Translations under genes and position numbers: made by a program
In this document: positions 4,097-44,000 of the stretch, in pieces
Layout of the letters: every line of letters starts with the position of its first letter
How positions within the stretch are numbered: the first letter of the stretch is position 1
Notes under the pieces: model-generated
Seen by the model: only the letters and a program-made list of their open reading frames with translations
Told to the model about the DNA's origin: nothing
Database searches by the model: none
Assembly: GCA_963733035.1 (NCBI GenBank)
Contig: CAVTBU010000007.1
Span: 384,001 to 448,000, forward strand
Reading direction: 5' to 3'
DNA from: Pirellulales bacterium
GTDB taxonomy: Bacteria; Planctomycetota; Planctomycetia; Pirellulales; PALSA-1355
DNA: 64,000 nt

Positions 4097-4819
4097 CTGT
4101 TTGTCGGGTCACTTACGAATCGCTAGGCCGGTCGGGATCCGTTGGGCCGGGTGAGCGGCTGCTGTGGCAGAAGGAGGGAGGGAGGGAAAGGACAGCGGCA
4201 CGCCCGCCAGGCGTCTTACGGACGGGCACCGATTTGCATTTTAACGCATTATCTCCCTAGATGAGGACTTTGACCTTTTCAAGGGCCGTAACTTTTCTCG
4301 CCGGTCCGACCCTTCTCACCCGCATTTTTCTGCCGTGCGTCGCGATGGAAGCCTCTTTGCGACTTTGCCTCTTTCAATCGAGCCAGCCGTTGGGCTAGCC
4401 TACGGTCGGCAAATTCTGGACAGCGGCCGCGCGGAGGACCGTCATGTTTCATATCGGGCAAAATGCGAAAGCTGCGGGCTGCGACATGTGTCATTTATCA
4501 GGTTACAAAAGGCGAAAAGAAAAGTGCGCGCAACTTTCATCCCGAAAAAAGGCCACTCGAAAACTTTGCGAATTCCGAACCGGGCCAACGGGCTGCCAAG
4601 CGAGCCCGTCGGCGTTCGACTCAGGCGGGACTCGAAACGCCGAAGAAATGTCGCGCCCGCTCGCACGCTTGAAACCGGACCAACCCATATCGCATAACAA
4701 GTGCTCACAATCGCCCAGCACCCCCCTGCCCCTTGCCCGGCGCCTGCCAATCTGGCACCATAAGTCGTCTATTTCCAGGACTGGCTATTCAACTCCCCCT
4801 TTGGCGAGAACCACGACCG

Positions 4820-6133
4820 ATGGCTGCTGCTTTTCCCAACGTTGAGAAAATCCGCTTCGAGGGCCCCCAGAGCAAAAACATGCTCGCTTTCCACCACTAC
4901 GATGAGAACGAAATCGTCGAGGGAAAGCCGATGAAGGAGCATTTCCGCTTTGCCGTTGCCTATTGGCACACCTTCCGCGGCCAGGGAGCCGACCCGTTCG
5001 GGCCGGGCACGATGGTGCGGCCTTGGGAAGCCGCCGAAGACACGGTCGCCAACGCCCGGAATCGCGTGAAGGTGGCCTTCGAGTTCATGGAGAAGCTCGG
5101 CGTTCACTTCTACTGCTTCCACGACCGCGACGTGGCGCCCGAGGGCAAGACGCTGGCCGAGTCGAACAAGAACCTCGACGAAGTCGTGAAGGTGCTCAAA
5201 GAGGAGCAGAAGCGCACCGGCATCAAGCTGCTGTGGGGCACCGCCAACCTGTTCAGCAACCCCCGCTACATGCACGGCGCCGCCACCAGTCCCAACGCCG
5301 ACGCCTTTGCCTATGCCGCGGCGCAGGTAAAGAAGGCGATCGAAGTGACCAAGGAGTTGGGCGGCGTCGGCTACACCTTCTGGGGCGGCCGCGAAGGCTA
5401 CCAGAACTTGTGGAACACCGACATGAAGCGCGAGTTCGATCACCTGGCGGCCTTCATGCACATGGCCGTCGACCATGCCAAGCAGATCGGCTTCGACGGG
5501 CAGTTTTACTTCGAACCCAAACCGAAGGAACCGACCAAGCATCAGTACGACTTCGACGTGGCCAACTGCATCAACTTCCTGCGCACCTACGGCCTGACCG
5601 ACCACGTGAAGATGAACATCGAAACCAACCACGCCACGCTGGCCGGCCACACGATGCAGCACGAAATCGAGTACGCCGGCGCGCAGGGCTTTCTGGGATC
5701 GATCGACGCCAACACGGGCGACTTGCTTTTGGGTTGGGACACCGATCAGTTTCCCACCGACATTTACCTGACCACCACCTGCATGCTTTCGATCTTGAAA
5801 TTCGGCGGTCTCTCGCCCGGCGGCATCAACTTCGACGCCAAGGTGCGGCGCGAAAGCTTCGAGCCGGTCGATCTGTTCCACGCCCACATCGGCGGCATGG
5901 ACGCCTTTGCCCGCGGCCTGAAGACGGCGGCCGCGATTCGCAAAGACGGCATCCTCGACAAAATGCTGGCCGATCGCTACAGCTCGTGGGGAACCGGCAT
6001 CGGCGAGCGGATCGAGGCGGGCAAGGAGGATTTCGCCTCGCTCGAAAAATACATGCTCGAAAAGGGTGAAATCACGCCCAATGTCAGCGGTCGGCAAGAG
6101 CTGCTGGAGAATATCATCAACACGTACATCTGA
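4820..6133 (+). CDS. xylA: Xylose isomerase (class II)
   Basis: Motifs [47 protein letters not shown] and GWDTDQFP. Confidence 0.97.
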
Positions 6134-6522
6134 CCGCGTCCCCTGTTGCGAACCGCGCGGCCGCGGCAATTTCAGATGGCGGCATTCGCCGTCGCACGAA
6201 CGCACGGCAATCGCTCGCGAAGGCGGAACTTCGTCGTTGCCGTTCGACATCCTCCCCACGGGGCGGCCTCGCGCGCGTGTCGGCGCCGTTTTTGTGCGCC
6301 TTGGAAAATCGCAGCTGAAGATCGAGTTTTCGCTTGGTTTTGTACGTTCAGCTTTTCTGATATCGCGCTGGGCCGGATATCGCGAGGCCTGCCCCTTTTT
6401 GATGCAGCTAGCGACCTCGCGCGGCTGCGTCCCCGCGCAACGCGCAGCGACGCGCAAGGACTTGCGCGATTGTGTGCCTGGCTTCAGCGGGCCGTTAGAA
6501 GTTCGTGTCGCTGCTTGTCGGC

Positions 6523-6538
6523 TGGCACAGTCCTTGCA
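6523..6538 (+). promoter_or_regulatory. Sigma-54 (-24/-12) promoter
   Basis: TGGCACAGTCCTTGCA, with correct GG-N10-GC spacing, ~80 bp upstream of the HAD-IIA gene. Confidence 0.7.
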
Positions 6539-6617
6539 AGTATGAATGCCGTGCTGGTTCAACATCCCTGGCAAGAGAACTCAGCATTCGTTTTTTTCAC
6601 CCAAGGACCTGCGTTTT

Positions 6618-9524: not shown

Positions 9525-9911
9525 ATGCATTGCGCCACACGCCCACGTCTGACCACGCTCATGGTATTGGCCGCCTATTTGGCCGCCCATACCCTTGGTG
9601 CGCTCTTGCACGAGCGGTTGCACGTTCATGCCGCCGGTGATGTCTGTTGTCATGCTCATGACCACAATCATGGGCACGCGTATGAGACCGAAGCCTCGAC
9701 CCCCGAAGGCAACCTGGCCTCGAAGGGAGCACTGCACGATCACGATTGTGTTGTCTGTCGAGTCACGGGTCAGCCGGTCGTTCCAGCCGTTGCGGCTGAC
9801 TTCGACATGGTCGCGGACGTTCGTCCCGACGCCCTCCCCTGCCCTGCCGCCGCGCCCCGTTCGCTCGCGGTGCGGATCGCTCAATCGCGGGCCCCTCCCC
9901 TCGCCGTCTAA
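9525..9911 (+). CDS. His-rich CxxC/RAPP upstream ORF (DUF2946/CruR-like putative ribosome-arrest leader)
   Basis: N-terminal hydrophobic segment, His tract, HDHDCVVC, and C-terminal QSRAPPLAV*. Confidence 0.75.
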   Translation: MHCATRPRLTTLMVLAAYLAAHTLGALLHERLHVHAAGDVCCHAHDHNHGHAYETEASTPEGNLASKGALHDHDCVVCRVTGQPVVPAVAADFDMVADVRPDALPCPAAAPRSLAVRIAQSRAPPLAV

Positions 9912-9996
9912 CGGCGTTTGATTGGTCACTCCGCCGGTGCTGCGCGCTTTGAGATTGCGCACCGTCGGCAACCTTTGACTAGGGAGGTACCAGGCT

Positions 9997-12396
9997 ATGG
10001 TAACCGTCCGCAAGGCGTTCAGCTATGTAGGGGCACGTCAAGTGGTGGCGATGTTTCACATCGTTGCCTCCTGGTTGGCGAGCTGGCGGGCTCGCGGAGG
10101 GCAGGCCCTACCGCAGTCGGAGCGGAGCGTGCCCGCCGGCGGCGCGTCGCCTGCCAGATTCCCATCTTCTGGCGATCTGTCCTCGAAGCAACCTCGAAGG
10201 TTCCATTCAGCTATTCGAGCTCAAGCGAACGCATCGCTGGCCCATGAGATTCAGTACGGCGAGATCGATGCCCATTCACACTCACGAGCTCACACGGCCG
10301 TTGAGGCCCTGGCCCAAAGGCTGGCTCGAGCTGTCGATCCCGATCCTGCACTTCGAGGATCCGATTTTGTTTTCTCCTCATGCCTTGGCGGGCGTGACGA
10401 GACGCGGTTGATAGGGCTGGCCTTTCAGAACCGCGGTCCACATCCAAGAGAGCAATTTGCGAGCGATGCCGACGGCGGCCGCTTTCTTGCCGGCGGAACG
10501 GCTCATCTTCAGCCACATCTTCTTGATACCGGGTTCGCAGCGGATGGCCGTCCAGGCGGCCTGCTGCAACACCCAACGCAAGTCGCGGGGTCCGGTCTTG
10601 GCGATGTGCCCTTCTCGTTGTTTGCCGCCGCTGGCGAAGACGCGCGGATGCAGTCCCGCATAGCAGGCGATCGCCTTGCGATAGGTGAAGCGACGGAAGT
10701 CGCCGACTTCGGCCAGGACTGTGGCGCTCACAATCAGGCCGACACCCGGGAAGGTTTGCAGCAGCGCGGCCGTGTCGCGGAATCGCTCGCTGGCGAGGAG
10801 GCGCCGCAACTCCATTTCGGCTTGGGCGATCTGCCGTTCGACGAGGGTCAACTGGTCGACGCACTTCCAAAGGATGGCCACATGTCGCTCGGACAGCTTT
10901 GTCTCGAAGGCCTTCAGGTAGCGAATCAAGCCATCACTCTGCAACCGCGCCGGCCCCGGACGGTTGTTGGCGTTCATGATGCTTTTGACCTGGTGCAGCA
11001 CACGAGCATGCAATCGCGAGAGCTGGTTGCGATGTCGCGTCTGGTCCTTGAGGATTTGTACTTCCAGGGGGGGTGCGTAGGCCAGCGGCAAGCGGCCGGC
11101 GGCCAGCAACTCGGCGACGTTTTGGGCGTCTTCCCGGTCGGTCTTCAGCCGTCGGCCGGCCAACGCCCGGGCGGCCGTGGCATCAGCCAAGACCAGCTTT
11201 TCGACGATCGGTTCCAGCAGGTCCCACAGCCAGCGGTAGAAGCCCACCGCCTCAATCGCGACGACTTGCGGCCGTGGCAGTGCGGCGAAGAACTCGGCAA
11301 TCTGCGCCCGACACTTACAAGCCAGTTTACGAAACGAGATTTCCCCACAACACGGACAGTAAACGCAAACGGTCAACGTGTCCTTGTGCAAATCGATGCC
11401 GACGCACCAATGGTGCGTGAGAGTTCCCATCCTCATAATCAGCCTCGCCATGTAGGGGTTTGGAATCAGCACCCAACGCGACGGCAGGATAACACCCGCC
11501 GCCGACCCCTACATGGTTTCACATTGGTTGAACTATTGGTCGTGATTGCCGTGATCGGCATCTTGGTGGGGCTGCTGTTGCCCGCGGTCCAGGCTGCCCG
11601 TGAAAGTGCGCGGCGGTCGCAGTGCCAAAACAACCTCCGCCAAATCGGCGTGGCAATGCAAAACGCGCACGGAGCCCGGGGTTCCTTTCCACCGGGATTT
11701 ATATCGCGGGCTCCGAACAAGAACGATGATGGCCTGGGGCCCGGCTGGGGTTGGGGCGCGCATTTGATGCCGTACATCGAAGAGGCAAATCTGCAAATCG
11801 ATCTGGCGCGCGAGATCATGGATCCCGTGCACGACCAGGTGCGCCAGACTCGCGTGGCCACCTATCTTTGCCCCTCGGATCCGGATCCGCCGCAAACGTT
11901 CTCGGTGGCGGATGACAGTGGCACCGAACTGACAAAAGTGGCTTTTGCCAATTATGTGGGTGTCGGCGGTACGTTCGAAGTCACGGAGTTTCCCGACACT
12001 GGCACGGGTGTCCTGTTTCGCAACCGGCGGATTCGCATCGCCGAGATCACGGACGGCACCTCCAGGACGCTAATGGTGGGCGAACGCAGCAGCCGTCGCT
12101 CGCCACAAACCACCTGGGTGGGAGCCGTCACCGGTTCGGCGATTCCACCGGTCAACCCGACGTACGATACCGAGGGGCCACCGGTGCTGGTGCTCACCAA
12201 CACCGGCGAGACCGAAGACGACCGCGTGCCGAACAATCTGCTTGACCACGTCGAGGACTCCAACAGCGAACATCCCGATGGCGTGAACTTCCTGCTCTGC
12301 GATGGATCGGTGCGAATCATCAACAACCAGATTGATCCACGCGTCTGGGCGGCACTGGGAACCCGGGCCGGCGGCGAGGAACTCGGCGAGTATTGA
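9997..12396 (+). CDS. DUF1559 prepilin-type N-terminal cleavage/methylation protein. Native gene = 9997-10020 + 11521-12396 (299 aa); now carries an in-frame 1500-bp IS110 insertion
   Basis: SD GGGAGG at 9982-9987. Rejoined N-terminus MVTVRKAF+[33 protein letters not shown]-terminal H-X9-DG motif ([12 protein letters not shown]). Confidence 0.9.
10150..10377 (-). ncRNA. Putative bridge/seek RNA of the IS110 element (boundaries approximate)
   Basis: Non-coding region downstream of the transposase with two related 21-nt units (10203-10223 and 10272-10292). Their variable cores match the element junction and the insertion target respectively. Internal stems are visible. Confidence 0.7.
10378..11436 (-). 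CDS. IS110-family DEDD recombinase/transposase
   Basis: [13 protein letters not shown] and KTDREDA (DEDD), PGVGLIVSA, catalytic-Ser motif FASGG, and ARKL. The start could be 11430, 11436 or 11451. Confidence 0.95.
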
Positions 12397-41040: not shown

Positions 41041-44000
41041 CTAGCTCTTCGTGGGCTCGTAACCTAAGTTCGGGGCCAGCCAGCGCTCAACTTCCGCGAG
41101 CGTCATTCCCTTGCGTTTGGCGTAGTCTTCGGCCTGGTCGCGGGCGATGCGGTCGACCGAGAAGTAGCGGGCCTCGGGATGGGCGAAGTACAGGCCGCTG
41201 ACACTGGCGGCCGGCAGCATCGCGAAGCTTTCGGTCAGCTCGATGCTGGCCTTGTTGGTGGCATCGAGCAGTTTGAACAAGATCGCCTTTTCGGTGTGAT
41301 CGGGGCAGGCCGGGTAGCCGGCCGCGGGACGAATACCGCGGTACTTCTCGGCAATCAATTCGTCGTTCGAGAGATTCTCCTCGTCGCCGTAGCCCCAGTC
41401 GTGGCGGGCACGCTTGTGCAGGCATTCGGCAAACGCTTCGGCCAGTCGATCGGCCAGGGCCTTCACCAGAATGGAATGGTAGTCGTCGTGGTCGGCTTCG
41501 TACTGGGCCACCAGTTTGTCGATGCCGATGCCGGTCGTGACCGCAAACGCGCCGAGATAATCTGGCCGACCGCTATCGAGCGGAGCGACGTAATCGGCCA
41601 GCGACGTGAAATGCTTCTGACCCTTGCGTTCCCACTGTTGGCGCAGCATGTGAAACCGTGTCAGTTCCCGCTGCCGCGACTCGTCGGCATACAGCACGAC
41701 GTCGTCTCCCACGGAGCCCGCCGGCCAGAAGCCGTACACACCGCGCGCGGTCAGCAGCTTTTCGCTGACGATCCGCTTGAGCATCGCTTGGGCGTCTGCG
41801 TAGAGTTTTTTCGCACTCTCGCCGTAGGTCGGATCGTCGAAGATCTTGGGATACTTGCCCTTCAGTTCCCAGGTGAGAAAGAACGGCGACCAATCGATAA
41901 AGTCCACCAGCTGCTCGAGCGGGAAATCCTCCAGCACCCGCACGCCCGTGAACGACGGTTTGTCGATCCGCACATTGGCCCAATCGGTCGGCAGGTGTCT
42001 TGCCTTGGCCTCGGCATAGGGTGTCAGCGCGATCTGCTGCCGGGTGTTGTACGACTCGACCAGCGCTTCCTGATCCTGCCGGTTCTTGGCTTCGAAGCCG
42101 GTCCGCAGTTTCGGATTAATCAGTCGATCGACGACCCCCACGCTGCGCGAGGCGTCGAGCACGTGCACCGTCGCATTGCGATAGGCCGGGGCGATTTTGA
42201 CGGCCGTGTGCTTGGCGCTGGTGGTGGCCCCGCCAATGAGCAGCGGGATGTCGAAGTCTTGGCGGTCCATTTCGCCAGCCACGTGCACCATCTCGTCGAG
42301 GCTCGGCGTGATCAAGCCCGACAGCCCGATCATGTCGACACCTTCGCTACGGGCGGTCTCCAGAATCTTTTCGCAGGGAACCATCACGCCCAAATCGATT
42401 ATTTCGTAATTGTTGCAGCCGAGCACCACGCCGACGATGTTTTTGCCGATGTCGTGCACGTCCCCCTTGACCGTGGCCAAGAGCACTTTTCCGCGAGCCG
42501 ACTGCGACTGCGTACCGGCTTCGATCTTCTCCTGCTCCATGTAGGGCAGCAGGTAGGCCACGGCCTTCTTCATTACCCGCGCGCTTTTGACGACTTGCGG
42601 CAGGAACATTTTGCCGGCGCCGAACAGGTCGCCGACGATCGACATGCCGTCCATCAGCGGCCCTTCAATGATCTGCAGGCAGCGATCGTATTTTTGCCGA
42701 GCTTCCTCAACATCTTGTTCGACGTAGTCGACAATGCCCTTGACCAGCGCATGCGCCAGCCGCTTTTCCAAAGGTTCGTTGCGCCAGGCCAGCGTCTGTG
42801 CCTCGCTCGGGCCGCCTGACTTTTTAACCGTTTCGGCAAAGCTGACGAGCCGCTCGGTGGCATCCGGCCGGCGATTGAGCAGCACGTCTTCGACCAACGC
42901 GAGCAGGTCCTTGGGAATCTCCTCGTAGACCGCGAGCTGACCGGCGTTGACGATGCCCATGTCCAGCCCGGCATGGATCGCGTGATACAGGAATGCCGCG
43001 TGAATCGCCTCGCGCACCACGTCGTTACCGCGAAACGAGAACGACACGTTGCTCACTCCGCCAGAAACCTTGGCGCCCGGACAGCGCTGCTTGATCAGCT
43101 TCATGGCCTCGAAGAAGTTGACCGCGTAGTTGTTGTGCTCCTCGATCCCCGTGGCCACGGTGAGGATGTTCGGATCGAAGATGATATCCTCGGGCGGCAT
43201 GCCCACTTTTTCGGTGAGCAGCTTGTAGGCCCGCTCGCAGATGGCCGCCTTGCGGTCGGTTTCGGTGGCCTGCCCTTCCTCATCAAACGCCATGACCACG
43301 ACGGCGGCGCCGTAGCGGCGTACCAGTCGGGCGTGGTGCAGGAACTGCTCTTCCCCCTCCTTGAGGCTGATCGAGTTGACGATGCCCTTGCCCTGGACGC
43401 ACTTGAGGCCGGCCTCGATGACCGACCACTTGGAGCTGTCGACCATGATCGGAACCCGGGCAATCTCGGGTTCGGCCGAGACGAGGTTCAGGAACTTCGT
43501 CATGGCTGCCTCGCCGTCGAGCATGCCTTCGTCCATGTTGACGTCGATCACATTCGCGCCGGCCTCGACCTGCTCGCGGGCCACGGCGATCGCCTCCTCG
43601 TACTTCTCGTTGAGGATCAAACGGGCGAACTTCTTCGAGCCCGTGACGTTGGTGCGCTCGCCAATCATCAAGAAGTTGCTGTCCGGCCGGATCGTGAGCA
43701 CTTCGAGTCCGCTTAAGCGAGTCAGCGGTTCGATCTTCGGCCGCTTTCGGGGCTGCTTGTCGGCCACCGCCTCGGCGATGGCCTTGATATGGGCAGGCGT
43801 TGTTCCGCAACAACCGCCGACAATGTTCAGCCAGCCGTTGGCCGCGAATTCGCCAAGTACCTTGGCCATCATCTGGGGTGTTTCGTCGAAGCCGCCGAAA
43901 GCGTTCGGCAGGCCGGCGTTCGGATAGCAACTCACATAGATCGGCGCGATCCGCGATAGCTCTTCGACATACGGCCGCAGCATTTCGGGGCCAAGTGCGC

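Follow-up and report, generated by a model that had tools for sequence, protein, structure and literature searches.

In-frame, stop-free IS1111-type elements at the prepilin cleavage motif of DUF1559 genes, probably tolerated as part of a cleaved leader

In a 64,000-nucleotide stretch of a Pirellulales genome (GenBank assembly GCA_963733035.1, contig CAVTBU010000007.1, positions 384,001 to 448,000; the whole stretch is called the window below), a DUF1559 gene is interrupted by an insertion sequence (IS) of the IS1111 group, which sits within the codons of the prepilin cleavage motif and is crossed by the host reading frame from end to end without a stop. An earlier note, made from the letters of the window alone, had drawn attention to this arrangement at 9997..12396, and we can confirm that the observation is real. 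Based on a comparison with related copies, we conclude that the stop-free, in-frame state is kept by selection, and specifically so in lineages of the element that target prepilin motifs. The most economical explanation, which is that of the earlier note, is that the element lies in the leader: it is probably translated within the prepilin leader and discarded with it by prepilin peptidase, whereby the insertion would be made harmless, the removal being the step that we infer. With somewhat less confidence, we lean towards a wider view of these elements as a radiation of RNA-guided transposons, comprising at least two subfamilies (35% identical), that act as 'protein-level introns' removed by the prepilin peptidase of the host.

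The interrupted gene and its rebuilt cleavage site

The features of the interrupted gene on which the argument depends are the following.

9997..12396, + strand: single open reading frame (ORF) of 799 codons, consisting of 7 codons of native leader, 500 codons of IS antisense and the DUF1559 body (direct reading)
9982..10017, + strand: host Shine-Dalgarno (SD) sequence GGGAGG at 9982-9987, ATG at 9997 and native leader MVTVRKA (direct reading)
10018..11517, - strand: IS1111-type insertion sequence, 1500 bp (direct reading, homolog comparison)
10378..11472, - strand: gene for a DEDD transposase, 364 aa in its longest ORF, with ATG 11451 as the likely start (Pfam, codon analysis)
11503..11532, + strand: rebuilt class III signal-peptide cleavage site (direct reading, Pfam, right-end comparison)
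11518..12396, + strand: predicted mature DUF1559 pilin-like protein, 292 aa and stop (PF07596 positions 1-267/268, E 1.9e-49; PF07963)

The GGGAGG lies 9 nt 5' of ATG 9997, and the host codons from 9997 to 10020 read ATG GTA ACC GTC CGC AAG GCG TTC, with the insert splitting the Phe codon TTC (10018) of an A|FTLVE prepilin motif. The tetranucleotide TTCA is present at both junctions (10018-10021 and 11518-11521) at a spacing of exactly 1500 bp, and when the shared TTCA is counted with the transposase-proximal end, as is the convention for IS1111, the IS extends over 10022-11521. At the far end, the final IS codons CGA CCC CTA CAT GGT (11503-11517) encode RPLHG and are followed, from 11518, by TTC ACA TTG GTT GAA, encoding FTLVE. 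By direct reading, the rebuilt site has all the features expected of a prepilin: a G/A at -1, an F at +1, an E at +5, and then a hydrophobic helix. The earlier note had described a 1500-bp element within the A-F-T-L codons of a DUF1559 gene, a host frame free of stops from the SD/ATG at 9997 through the whole IS, an antisense frame codon-aligned with the transposase, and an IS end that supplies a basic leader with Gly before FTLVE; our own reading of the window gave the same element, the same 799-codon ORF, the same codon boundaries and RPLHG|FTLVE at 11503-11532.

The sole Pfam matches in the 799-aa ORF are PF07963, the N-terminal methylation motif (residues 506-528; E 4.7e-7 on the fused protein), and PF07596 (residues 532-781). 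The same genome holds A24 prepilin peptidase (PF01478) matches at G000:C5:318298-318609 and C6:357003-357650, and 23 prepilin-like N-termini, 13 of them with TTCA. An uninterrupted ortholog was not found in the three other genomes of the genus, where the best match to the mature protein is 49% identical.

The transposase is encoded antisense to the host gene, with codon boundaries common to both frames, and contains no TTA, CTA or TCA codon. It carries the two domains of IS110-family DEDD transposases, the DEDD/RuvC-like N-terminal one (PF01548, E 3.3e-10) and the IS116/IS110/IS902 C-terminal one (PF02371, E 1.9e-25). The non-coding DNA is distributed unevenly, with about 356 bp (10022-10377) 3' of the transposase stop versus about 45-65 bp before its start, and the ends are built from repeats and short extensions as follows.

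10025..10033, unstranded: subterminal inverted repeat ATGTAGGGG at the transposase-distal end, preceded by a 3-bp extension GCT (direct reading, homologs)
11506..11514, unstranded: subterminal inverted repeat CCCCTACAT at the transposase-proximal end; with GGT it encodes P-L-H-G in the host frame
11450..11458, unstranded: third, internal copy of ATGTAGGGG, able to pair with 11506-11514 and overlapping the likely start of the transposase

The two subterminal repeats pair perfectly over 9 bp, or over 11 bp with one mismatch, and the terminal extensions, GCT (3 bp) and GGTTTCA (7 bp, with the shared TTCA assigned there), are kept in homologs; there is no target duplication. In the part of Siddiquee et al. 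2024 (PMC11187229) available to us, the IS1111 group is characterized by subterminal repeats of 11-13 bp, 7- and 3-bp extensions without duplication, and a non-coding region downstream of the transposase that encodes a seekRNA. The domains, subterminal repeats, extensions, long non-coding region, and site and orientation specificity thus make the element a member of the IS1111 group of the IS110 family.

Insertion site and reading frame in related copies

Homologs were gathered by transposase similarity, not by frame: 3 loci in 40 related genomes (two of which are one copy in two pieces), 17 in species-representative genomes, and the best 80 of 426 matches in metagenomes. With the window this gave 100 loci, 99 of them with the transposase-5' end; the right junctions of L110, L114 and L116 were read by hand, and L115 stops short of its junction. 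At all 99 loci the transposase is antisense and the element end, ...CTACAT(G/A)GT, is joined to the TTC of an N-terminal motif. In 83 of them (the prepilin type), the element's Gly is followed by F-T/S-L-V/I-E, that is, the insertion lies in a G|FT(L)(V/I)E prepilin motif, which bears out the proposal of the earlier note that the element targets a conserved coding motif. The remaining 16 (the retargeted type) are joined to other motifs, mostly RRWFQ|FSLRTLL. Among the 29 prepilin-type host genes of testable length, 26 are DUF1559 genes. At the other junction we find short basic host leaders with a start codon 5-20 codons upstream (MNPRKG|F, MRRRPG|F, MARKA|F). The element itself is sparse, with the 17-mer junction CCCCTACATGGTTTYAC occurring in 2 of 401 sampled genomes of the phylum (G000, G396). 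Two outcomes that would speak against the earlier note could be looked for by computation, namely copies at unrelated sites or in both orientations, and homologs devoid of the basic end with its Gly. Neither was found: site and orientation are the same in 99 of 99 loci, codon -1 is GGT in all 72 distinct prepilin-type right ends, and position -5 is R or K in 67 of these, for which six different codons are used.

The tabulation of insertion site, orientation, length modulo three and host-frame stops that the earlier note had proposed shows that in 57 of the 66 prepilin-type copies for which both ends are present, the length is a multiple of three and the host frame has no stop. The open copies come in 30 different lengths, from 1386 to 1650 bp and, in addition, 1668 bp, and clustering of the prepilin-type copies at 95% on the nucleotide level leaves 48 open clusters and 7 closed ones. 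In 55 open elements, the host frame has 0 stops, against means of 13.2 (minimum 8) and 18.1 (minimum 10) in the other plus-strand frames. The same avoidance is visible in the codon choice of the transposase. In 12 intact transposases, none of 459 CTN/TCN codons ends in A, compared with 173 of 2002 in the other four-fold families, and the ratio of TTA to TTG is 0:109. Since related sequences are not independent, the p-values attached to these counts (Fisher, 1.5e-16, for the codon avoidance; binomial, 2e-8, for the 28 of 35 distinct lengths that are multiples of three) are overstated. Synonymous divergence (dS) between compared pairs of transposases is, on the other hand, 0.2-1.2, which leaves ample time for synonymous drift into the forbidden codons. 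An antisense stop is absent from 69 of 74 intact transposases, and two of the five exceptions (L108, L120) are artefacts of ORF picking, their host frames being stop-free. As a control, we used the other IS110-family transposase ORFs of at least 300 codons in the same 40 related genomes: 2 of 21 lack antisense stops, and the mean is 3.1 per 364 codons. The two control exceptions, L048 (G017:C523) and L038 (G037:C15), have antisense frames open over 409 and at least 452 codons. Their ends showed no prepilin motif, and the openness may be due to chance.

The window copy taken alone is suggestive, no more. TTA, CTA and TCA, whose complements are stops, account for 0.88% of the 12,670 codons in 28 genes of the window that were verified by Pfam, one of which has none of the three, and the probability of finding none in 364 codons is about 0.03-0.04; this copy has, besides, a stop-free non-coding part of 363 nt and a total length divisible by three. 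Two further ORFs in the window, of 601 aa (4769-6574, - strand) and 546 aa (41179-42819, + strand), lie opposite Pfam-verified genes and are ordinary shadow frames of high-GC DNA.

The retargeted lineages provide a natural negative control. Their copies have the same orientation and sit just behind a host start, at RRWFQ|FSLRTLL, a motif without Gly at -1. Only one of the 11 retargeted copies with both ends is open, namely L065, where an element of the prepilin type sits at an FTLRTLL site; among 14 retargeted transposases, only 4 are free of antisense stops, and 7 of 13 distinct right ends read PLHS. In a quick maximum-likelihood tree, rooted at the midpoint, the retargeted rows are nested among those of the prepilin type in at least three places, as a clade of eight, a clade of three (support 100 each) and singletons. 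The loss of the frame at each switch away from a cleavable motif is the main link between the open frame and removal of the leader. The earlier note's caveat, that a codon-aligned antisense frame may simply be open by chance, does not survive the comparison of 57/66 open prepilin-type copies with 1/11 retargeted copies and 2/21 controls. Judged from the whole set of copies, the entire element is kept in frame, from one end to the other and through the guide-RNA gene and the strand facing the transposase, with insertions and deletions (indels) in multiples of three. The retargeted loci are L052-L054, L066, L079, L090, L091, L093, L105-L107, L109, L114, L119 and L121; RRWFQ|FSLRTLL is a conserved planctomycete N-terminal motif, and the host gene of L091 encodes a type II secretion system protein G domain.

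The pattern extends to distant relatives and to more complex arrangements. Locus L004 (G017:C1239:1-2430), whose transposase is 35% identical to that of the window, is a 1668-bp insert in a DUF1559 gene, in frame and stop-free, with the left end METIKRKTRLDSSTRVG|FISVG...; transposases of this type were not found at E <= 1e-70 in 301 genomes of the class. In L014, a record from a cultured isolate, the fused ORF has 827 aa. Tandem arrays stay in frame too: L059 and L126 are open over more than 540 codons upstream of the second copy, and L064 is similar. L059 belongs to the same distant subfamily as L004 (left end FISVG), with a 1608-bp, in-frame, stop-free insert in a DUF1559 gene. In L059, L064 and L126, and also in L086, a copy lies behind the rebuilt site of an earlier copy or behind a scar, and the host leader of L086 ends in a degenerate RPLPG scar. 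Outside the window, the same genome carries a 75-bp mini copy without transposase (G000 contig C8:385481-385555; L135:1438-1512), with both subterminal repeats and TTCA on each side, at the same site and in the same orientation in a second prepilin-like gene. This mini copy keeps the frame without a stop, lengthens the leader by 25 residues, and arose by deletion between the distal repeat and the equivalent of the internal repeat at 11450-11458. Its host gene has orthologs in 19 of 33 genomes of the family, and the five of these that were read have ordinary leaders and no mini copy.

The long leader and the explanations for its open frame

According to the proposed mechanism, ribosomes would start at the host SD/ATG and read through the IS to give a prepilin with a leader of about 500 aa, which would remain in the cytoplasm like other prepilin leaders. 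Prepilin peptidase would then cut at the rebuilt G|F, yielding an unchanged mature protein, and the IS polypeptide would be discarded as junk. The insertion would thereby be nearly neutral, and the element could persist at low copy number. In the part of PMC7248040 that we could consult, prepilin leaders face the cytoplasm and are then cut off by the peptidase, so that a long leader need not cross the membrane. The composition of the leaders is consistent with this: 51 of 55 have no 19-residue Kyte-Doolittle window above 1.6, while the median for the pilin N-terminus is 2.81.

The leader, as judged from its divergence and domain content, is not a functional protein. The ratio of nonsynonymous to synonymous divergence (dN/dS) is 0.08-0.26 for the transposase and 1.1-1.5 for the host frame over the transposase; in the non-coding part, it is 0.5-0.98 for the host frame and 0.55-2.9 for shifted frames. 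The leader has no Pfam domain, including no Hint or other self-splicing domain. Taken together, these results argue that openness alone is kept. The peptides that are conserved in the leader, HSAIRA and AHSHSRA, are translations of blocks of the candidate guide RNA described below. In a set of 5.8 billion proteins, the leader has 4 matches, 40-62% identical and 452-996 aa long (from 8000 pre-filtered candidates, and hence no census). They carry PF07963 and PF07596, meaning that gene callers already call such fusions.

These findings bear on the alternatives to different degrees. That the antisense ORF encodes a functional IS protein, which borrows the promoter and start codon of the host, is an idea to which we give very little credence, although an ORF of about 500 codons is present in relatives down to 35% transposase identity. 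Neither the dN/dS of 1.1-1.5 over the transposase, where synonymous sites of the transposase are free to change (dS 0.2-1.2), nor the values near those of shifted frames in the non-coding part are what such a protein would lead one to expect, and its conserved peptides coincide with guide blocks, with no Pfam domain and only the four database matches at 40-62% identity. It is improbable, if less so, that expression of the host gene simply begins anew at a start codon inside the IS and close to its end, such as the in-frame ATG at 11410 that the earlier note had offered as an alternative and that would leave a 36-aa leader and make the long frame irrelevant. The window and about 32 of 72 distinct right ends do have an in-frame ATG at a distance of 34-36 codons upstream of the cut site, but the one at 11410 is complementary to a His codon that is conserved in the transposase, and in 23 of the 72 right ends the stretch 10-60 codons upstream contains no ATG in frame, so the alternative is not general; it would also leave unexplained the avoidance of stops over 1.4 kb upstream and the total lengths in multiples of three. 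Chance, meaning a codon-aligned antisense frame that happens to be open in DNA of 60% GC, could account for the window transposase in 3-4% of cases and does so for 2 of 21 unrelated IS110 transposases, yet it is for practical purposes ruled out by the family-wide counts and by the loss of the frame in retargeted lineages.

The strongest competitor, which we nevertheless consider unlikely, is that read-through is selected for the sake of the transcript and not of the pilin. Continuous translation from the host start would guard the host-sense transcript against premature termination, which would either spare downstream genes a polar effect or preserve a full antisense RNA across transposase and guide that damps transposition. 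The signatures of selection demand translation only, without a functional product, and dN/dS indicates that the leader sequence is unconstrained, both of which would suit this explanation. A benefit of the anti-polarity or antisense kind should, however, persist in the retargeted lineages, which have the same orientation after a host start and have lost the frame (1/11 open), and neither an in-frame far junction nor an invariant GGT (72/72) would be needed for it.

Removal of the element with the leader has its own difficulties. Nine of the 66 prepilin-type copies are out of frame, five of them with an intact transposase. In the closed copies L003 (= L021), L007, L020 and L023, which come from one series of metagenome-assembled genome records, the transposase is broken too, and the closure is due either to assembly indels or to decay. 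L011/L012 and L019 have an intact transposase and are open to the distal end, with a shift within about 100 nt of the host start, whereas the host frame of L118 contains 16 stops. Host gene bodies are intact beside closed copies as well, and intactness is therefore uninformative on function. The retargeted contrast rests on 3-4 independent switches in a quick, midpoint-rooted tree, and R at -5 is found in 11 of 13 retargeted right ends too, which means that this residue is not specific. The mini copy on C8 has no in-frame ATG, GTG or TTG upstream; an SD and ATG are there one base out of frame, beside runs of T5 and C4. Finally, known prepilin leaders have about 5-30 aa, and we know of no experimental precedent for the cleavage of a leader of about 500 aa.

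Target choice, known systems and other features of the window

The 3' non-coding region of the element contains a candidate guide RNA.

10179..10360 (approx.), - strand: candidate seekRNA/bridge RNA, with a structure conserved among the 3' non-coding regions (RNAalifold, conserved blocks)
10271..10290, - strand: candidate target guide AGCTCGTGAGTGTGAATGGG (block AGCyCGTGAGnGTGAATGGG, in most prepilin-type copies listed)
10202..10221, - strand: candidate donor guide AGCTCGAATAGCTGAATGGA (block GAATAGCTGAATG), matching the IS end CATAGC + TGAA (block alignment)

RNAalifold on 31 homologs gives 48 pairs, with compensatory changes at 19 of them; an Rfam scan of 9900-11650 returned no match at E <= 1. 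Within the target guide, GAGnGTGAA is the reverse complement of TTC ACn CTC, the codons for F-T-L, and a candidate guide that reads these codons would place the insertion in the Phe codon right after the Gly/Ala(-1) codon. Guide and target covary: the corresponding block is CAGGCTGAA in L054, GAGACTGAA in L066, L079 and L090, and CAGACTGAA in L109, and these retargeted blocks match their TTCAGyCT targets. The logic of guide to target and guide to donor is that of seekRNAs, for what is a computational candidate RNA. Judged from these alignments, it is an RNA that guides this IS family to the prepilin motif, and such targeting is universal in the family.

A restoration of the interrupted gene's function is known from integrating phages and islands, which insert in tRNA and tmRNA genes or in gene ends and carry a replacement of the displaced end. 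Like them, the present element has a conserved multi-copy target and would restore what it interrupts; but phages and islands do so at the DNA level, by duplication of the gene end, whereas here the element would be translated, and a protease of the host would afterwards take it out of the protein. Inteins, IStrons and group I-II introns are selfish inserts in coding regions that are made harmless by removal after transcription or translation. The resemblance to these is one of outcome only, as no self-splicing domain or ribozyme was found here (Pfam on the 799 aa, Rfam), and removal, unlike that of inteins, would need the host prepilin peptidase and work at an N-terminal leader only. Rickettsia palindromic elements are miniature elements that lie in frame within ORFs, are short and stay in the mature protein. 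The MITEs of Coxiella (miniature inverted-repeat transposable elements) likewise lie in frame within ORFs, as described in the part of PMC5896051 available to us. As in both of these, mobile DNA is here tolerated because the frame is kept, and the 75-bp mini copy on C8 can be counted among such elements; but the Rickettsia and Coxiella elements are short and retained in the mature protein, while the present one is an autonomous IS of 1.4-1.7 kb located where cleavage is predicted to remove it.

With the members of the IS1111 group treated in the portion of PMC11187229 at hand (ISEc11, ISPa11, ISKpn4/ISPst6, IS4321/IS5075), the element shares the DEDD transposase, the subterminal repeats, the 7- and 3-bp extensions, a long non-coding region for a structured RNA with target and donor segments, and strict site and orientation specificity. 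The targets named there are REP sequences, attC sites, transposon ends and a short linear site, whereas here it is the codons of a prepilin cleavage site, and the whole element is a stop-free extension of the host ORF that rebuilds a protease site. In that same portion of the paper, the terms 'pilin', 'in-frame' and 'Planctomyc' do not occur. We found no published report of an IS in a prepilin leader or of a stop-free antisense frame of an IS, though the supplementary target logos of PMC11187229, which lay outside the search, might list the target.

If the proposed removal with the leader is right, it would constitute a new route to a harmless transposon, which depends neither on a non-coding safe site nor on self-splicing: a signal peptidase of the host would trim the element away after its translation. 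The class III signal peptide would then be a safe harbour, where elements can stack in tandem without killing the gene. Removal with the leader would further predict that prepilin peptidase tolerates leaders of 460-550 aa, which could be of use in protein engineering. In these elements, some 1.5 kb of DNA answers to three demands at the same time: it codes for a transposase, it contains the structure of a guide RNA, and its antisense frame stays free of stops, with indels in frame only. The family also offers natural examples of bridge/seekRNA retargeting between two coding motifs. For annotation, there is a warning that 'prepilin-type' proteins of about 800 aa may be IS-bearing alleles, and that the transposase on the opposite strand may go uncalled.

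Some further observations concern the element and its surroundings. Its genome contains a single full copy, and the other IS110-type transposases there are 25-31% identical. Among the sequencing runs listed for this DNA there is no RNA run, and the best DNA run shares 0.22 of the sequence words. A conserved TTGACA is located near the distal end; a clear -10 for a circle-junction promoter was not seen on inspection by eye. Between 11450 and 11514, the internal and terminal repeats form a 9-bp inverted pair around 47 nt and enclose the likely start ATG 11451, and a hairpin of this sort could act as a translational brake on read-in transcripts. Elsewhere in the window, a Mutator-family transposase gene (PF00872, E 1.9e-108) lies at 264-1427 on the - strand.

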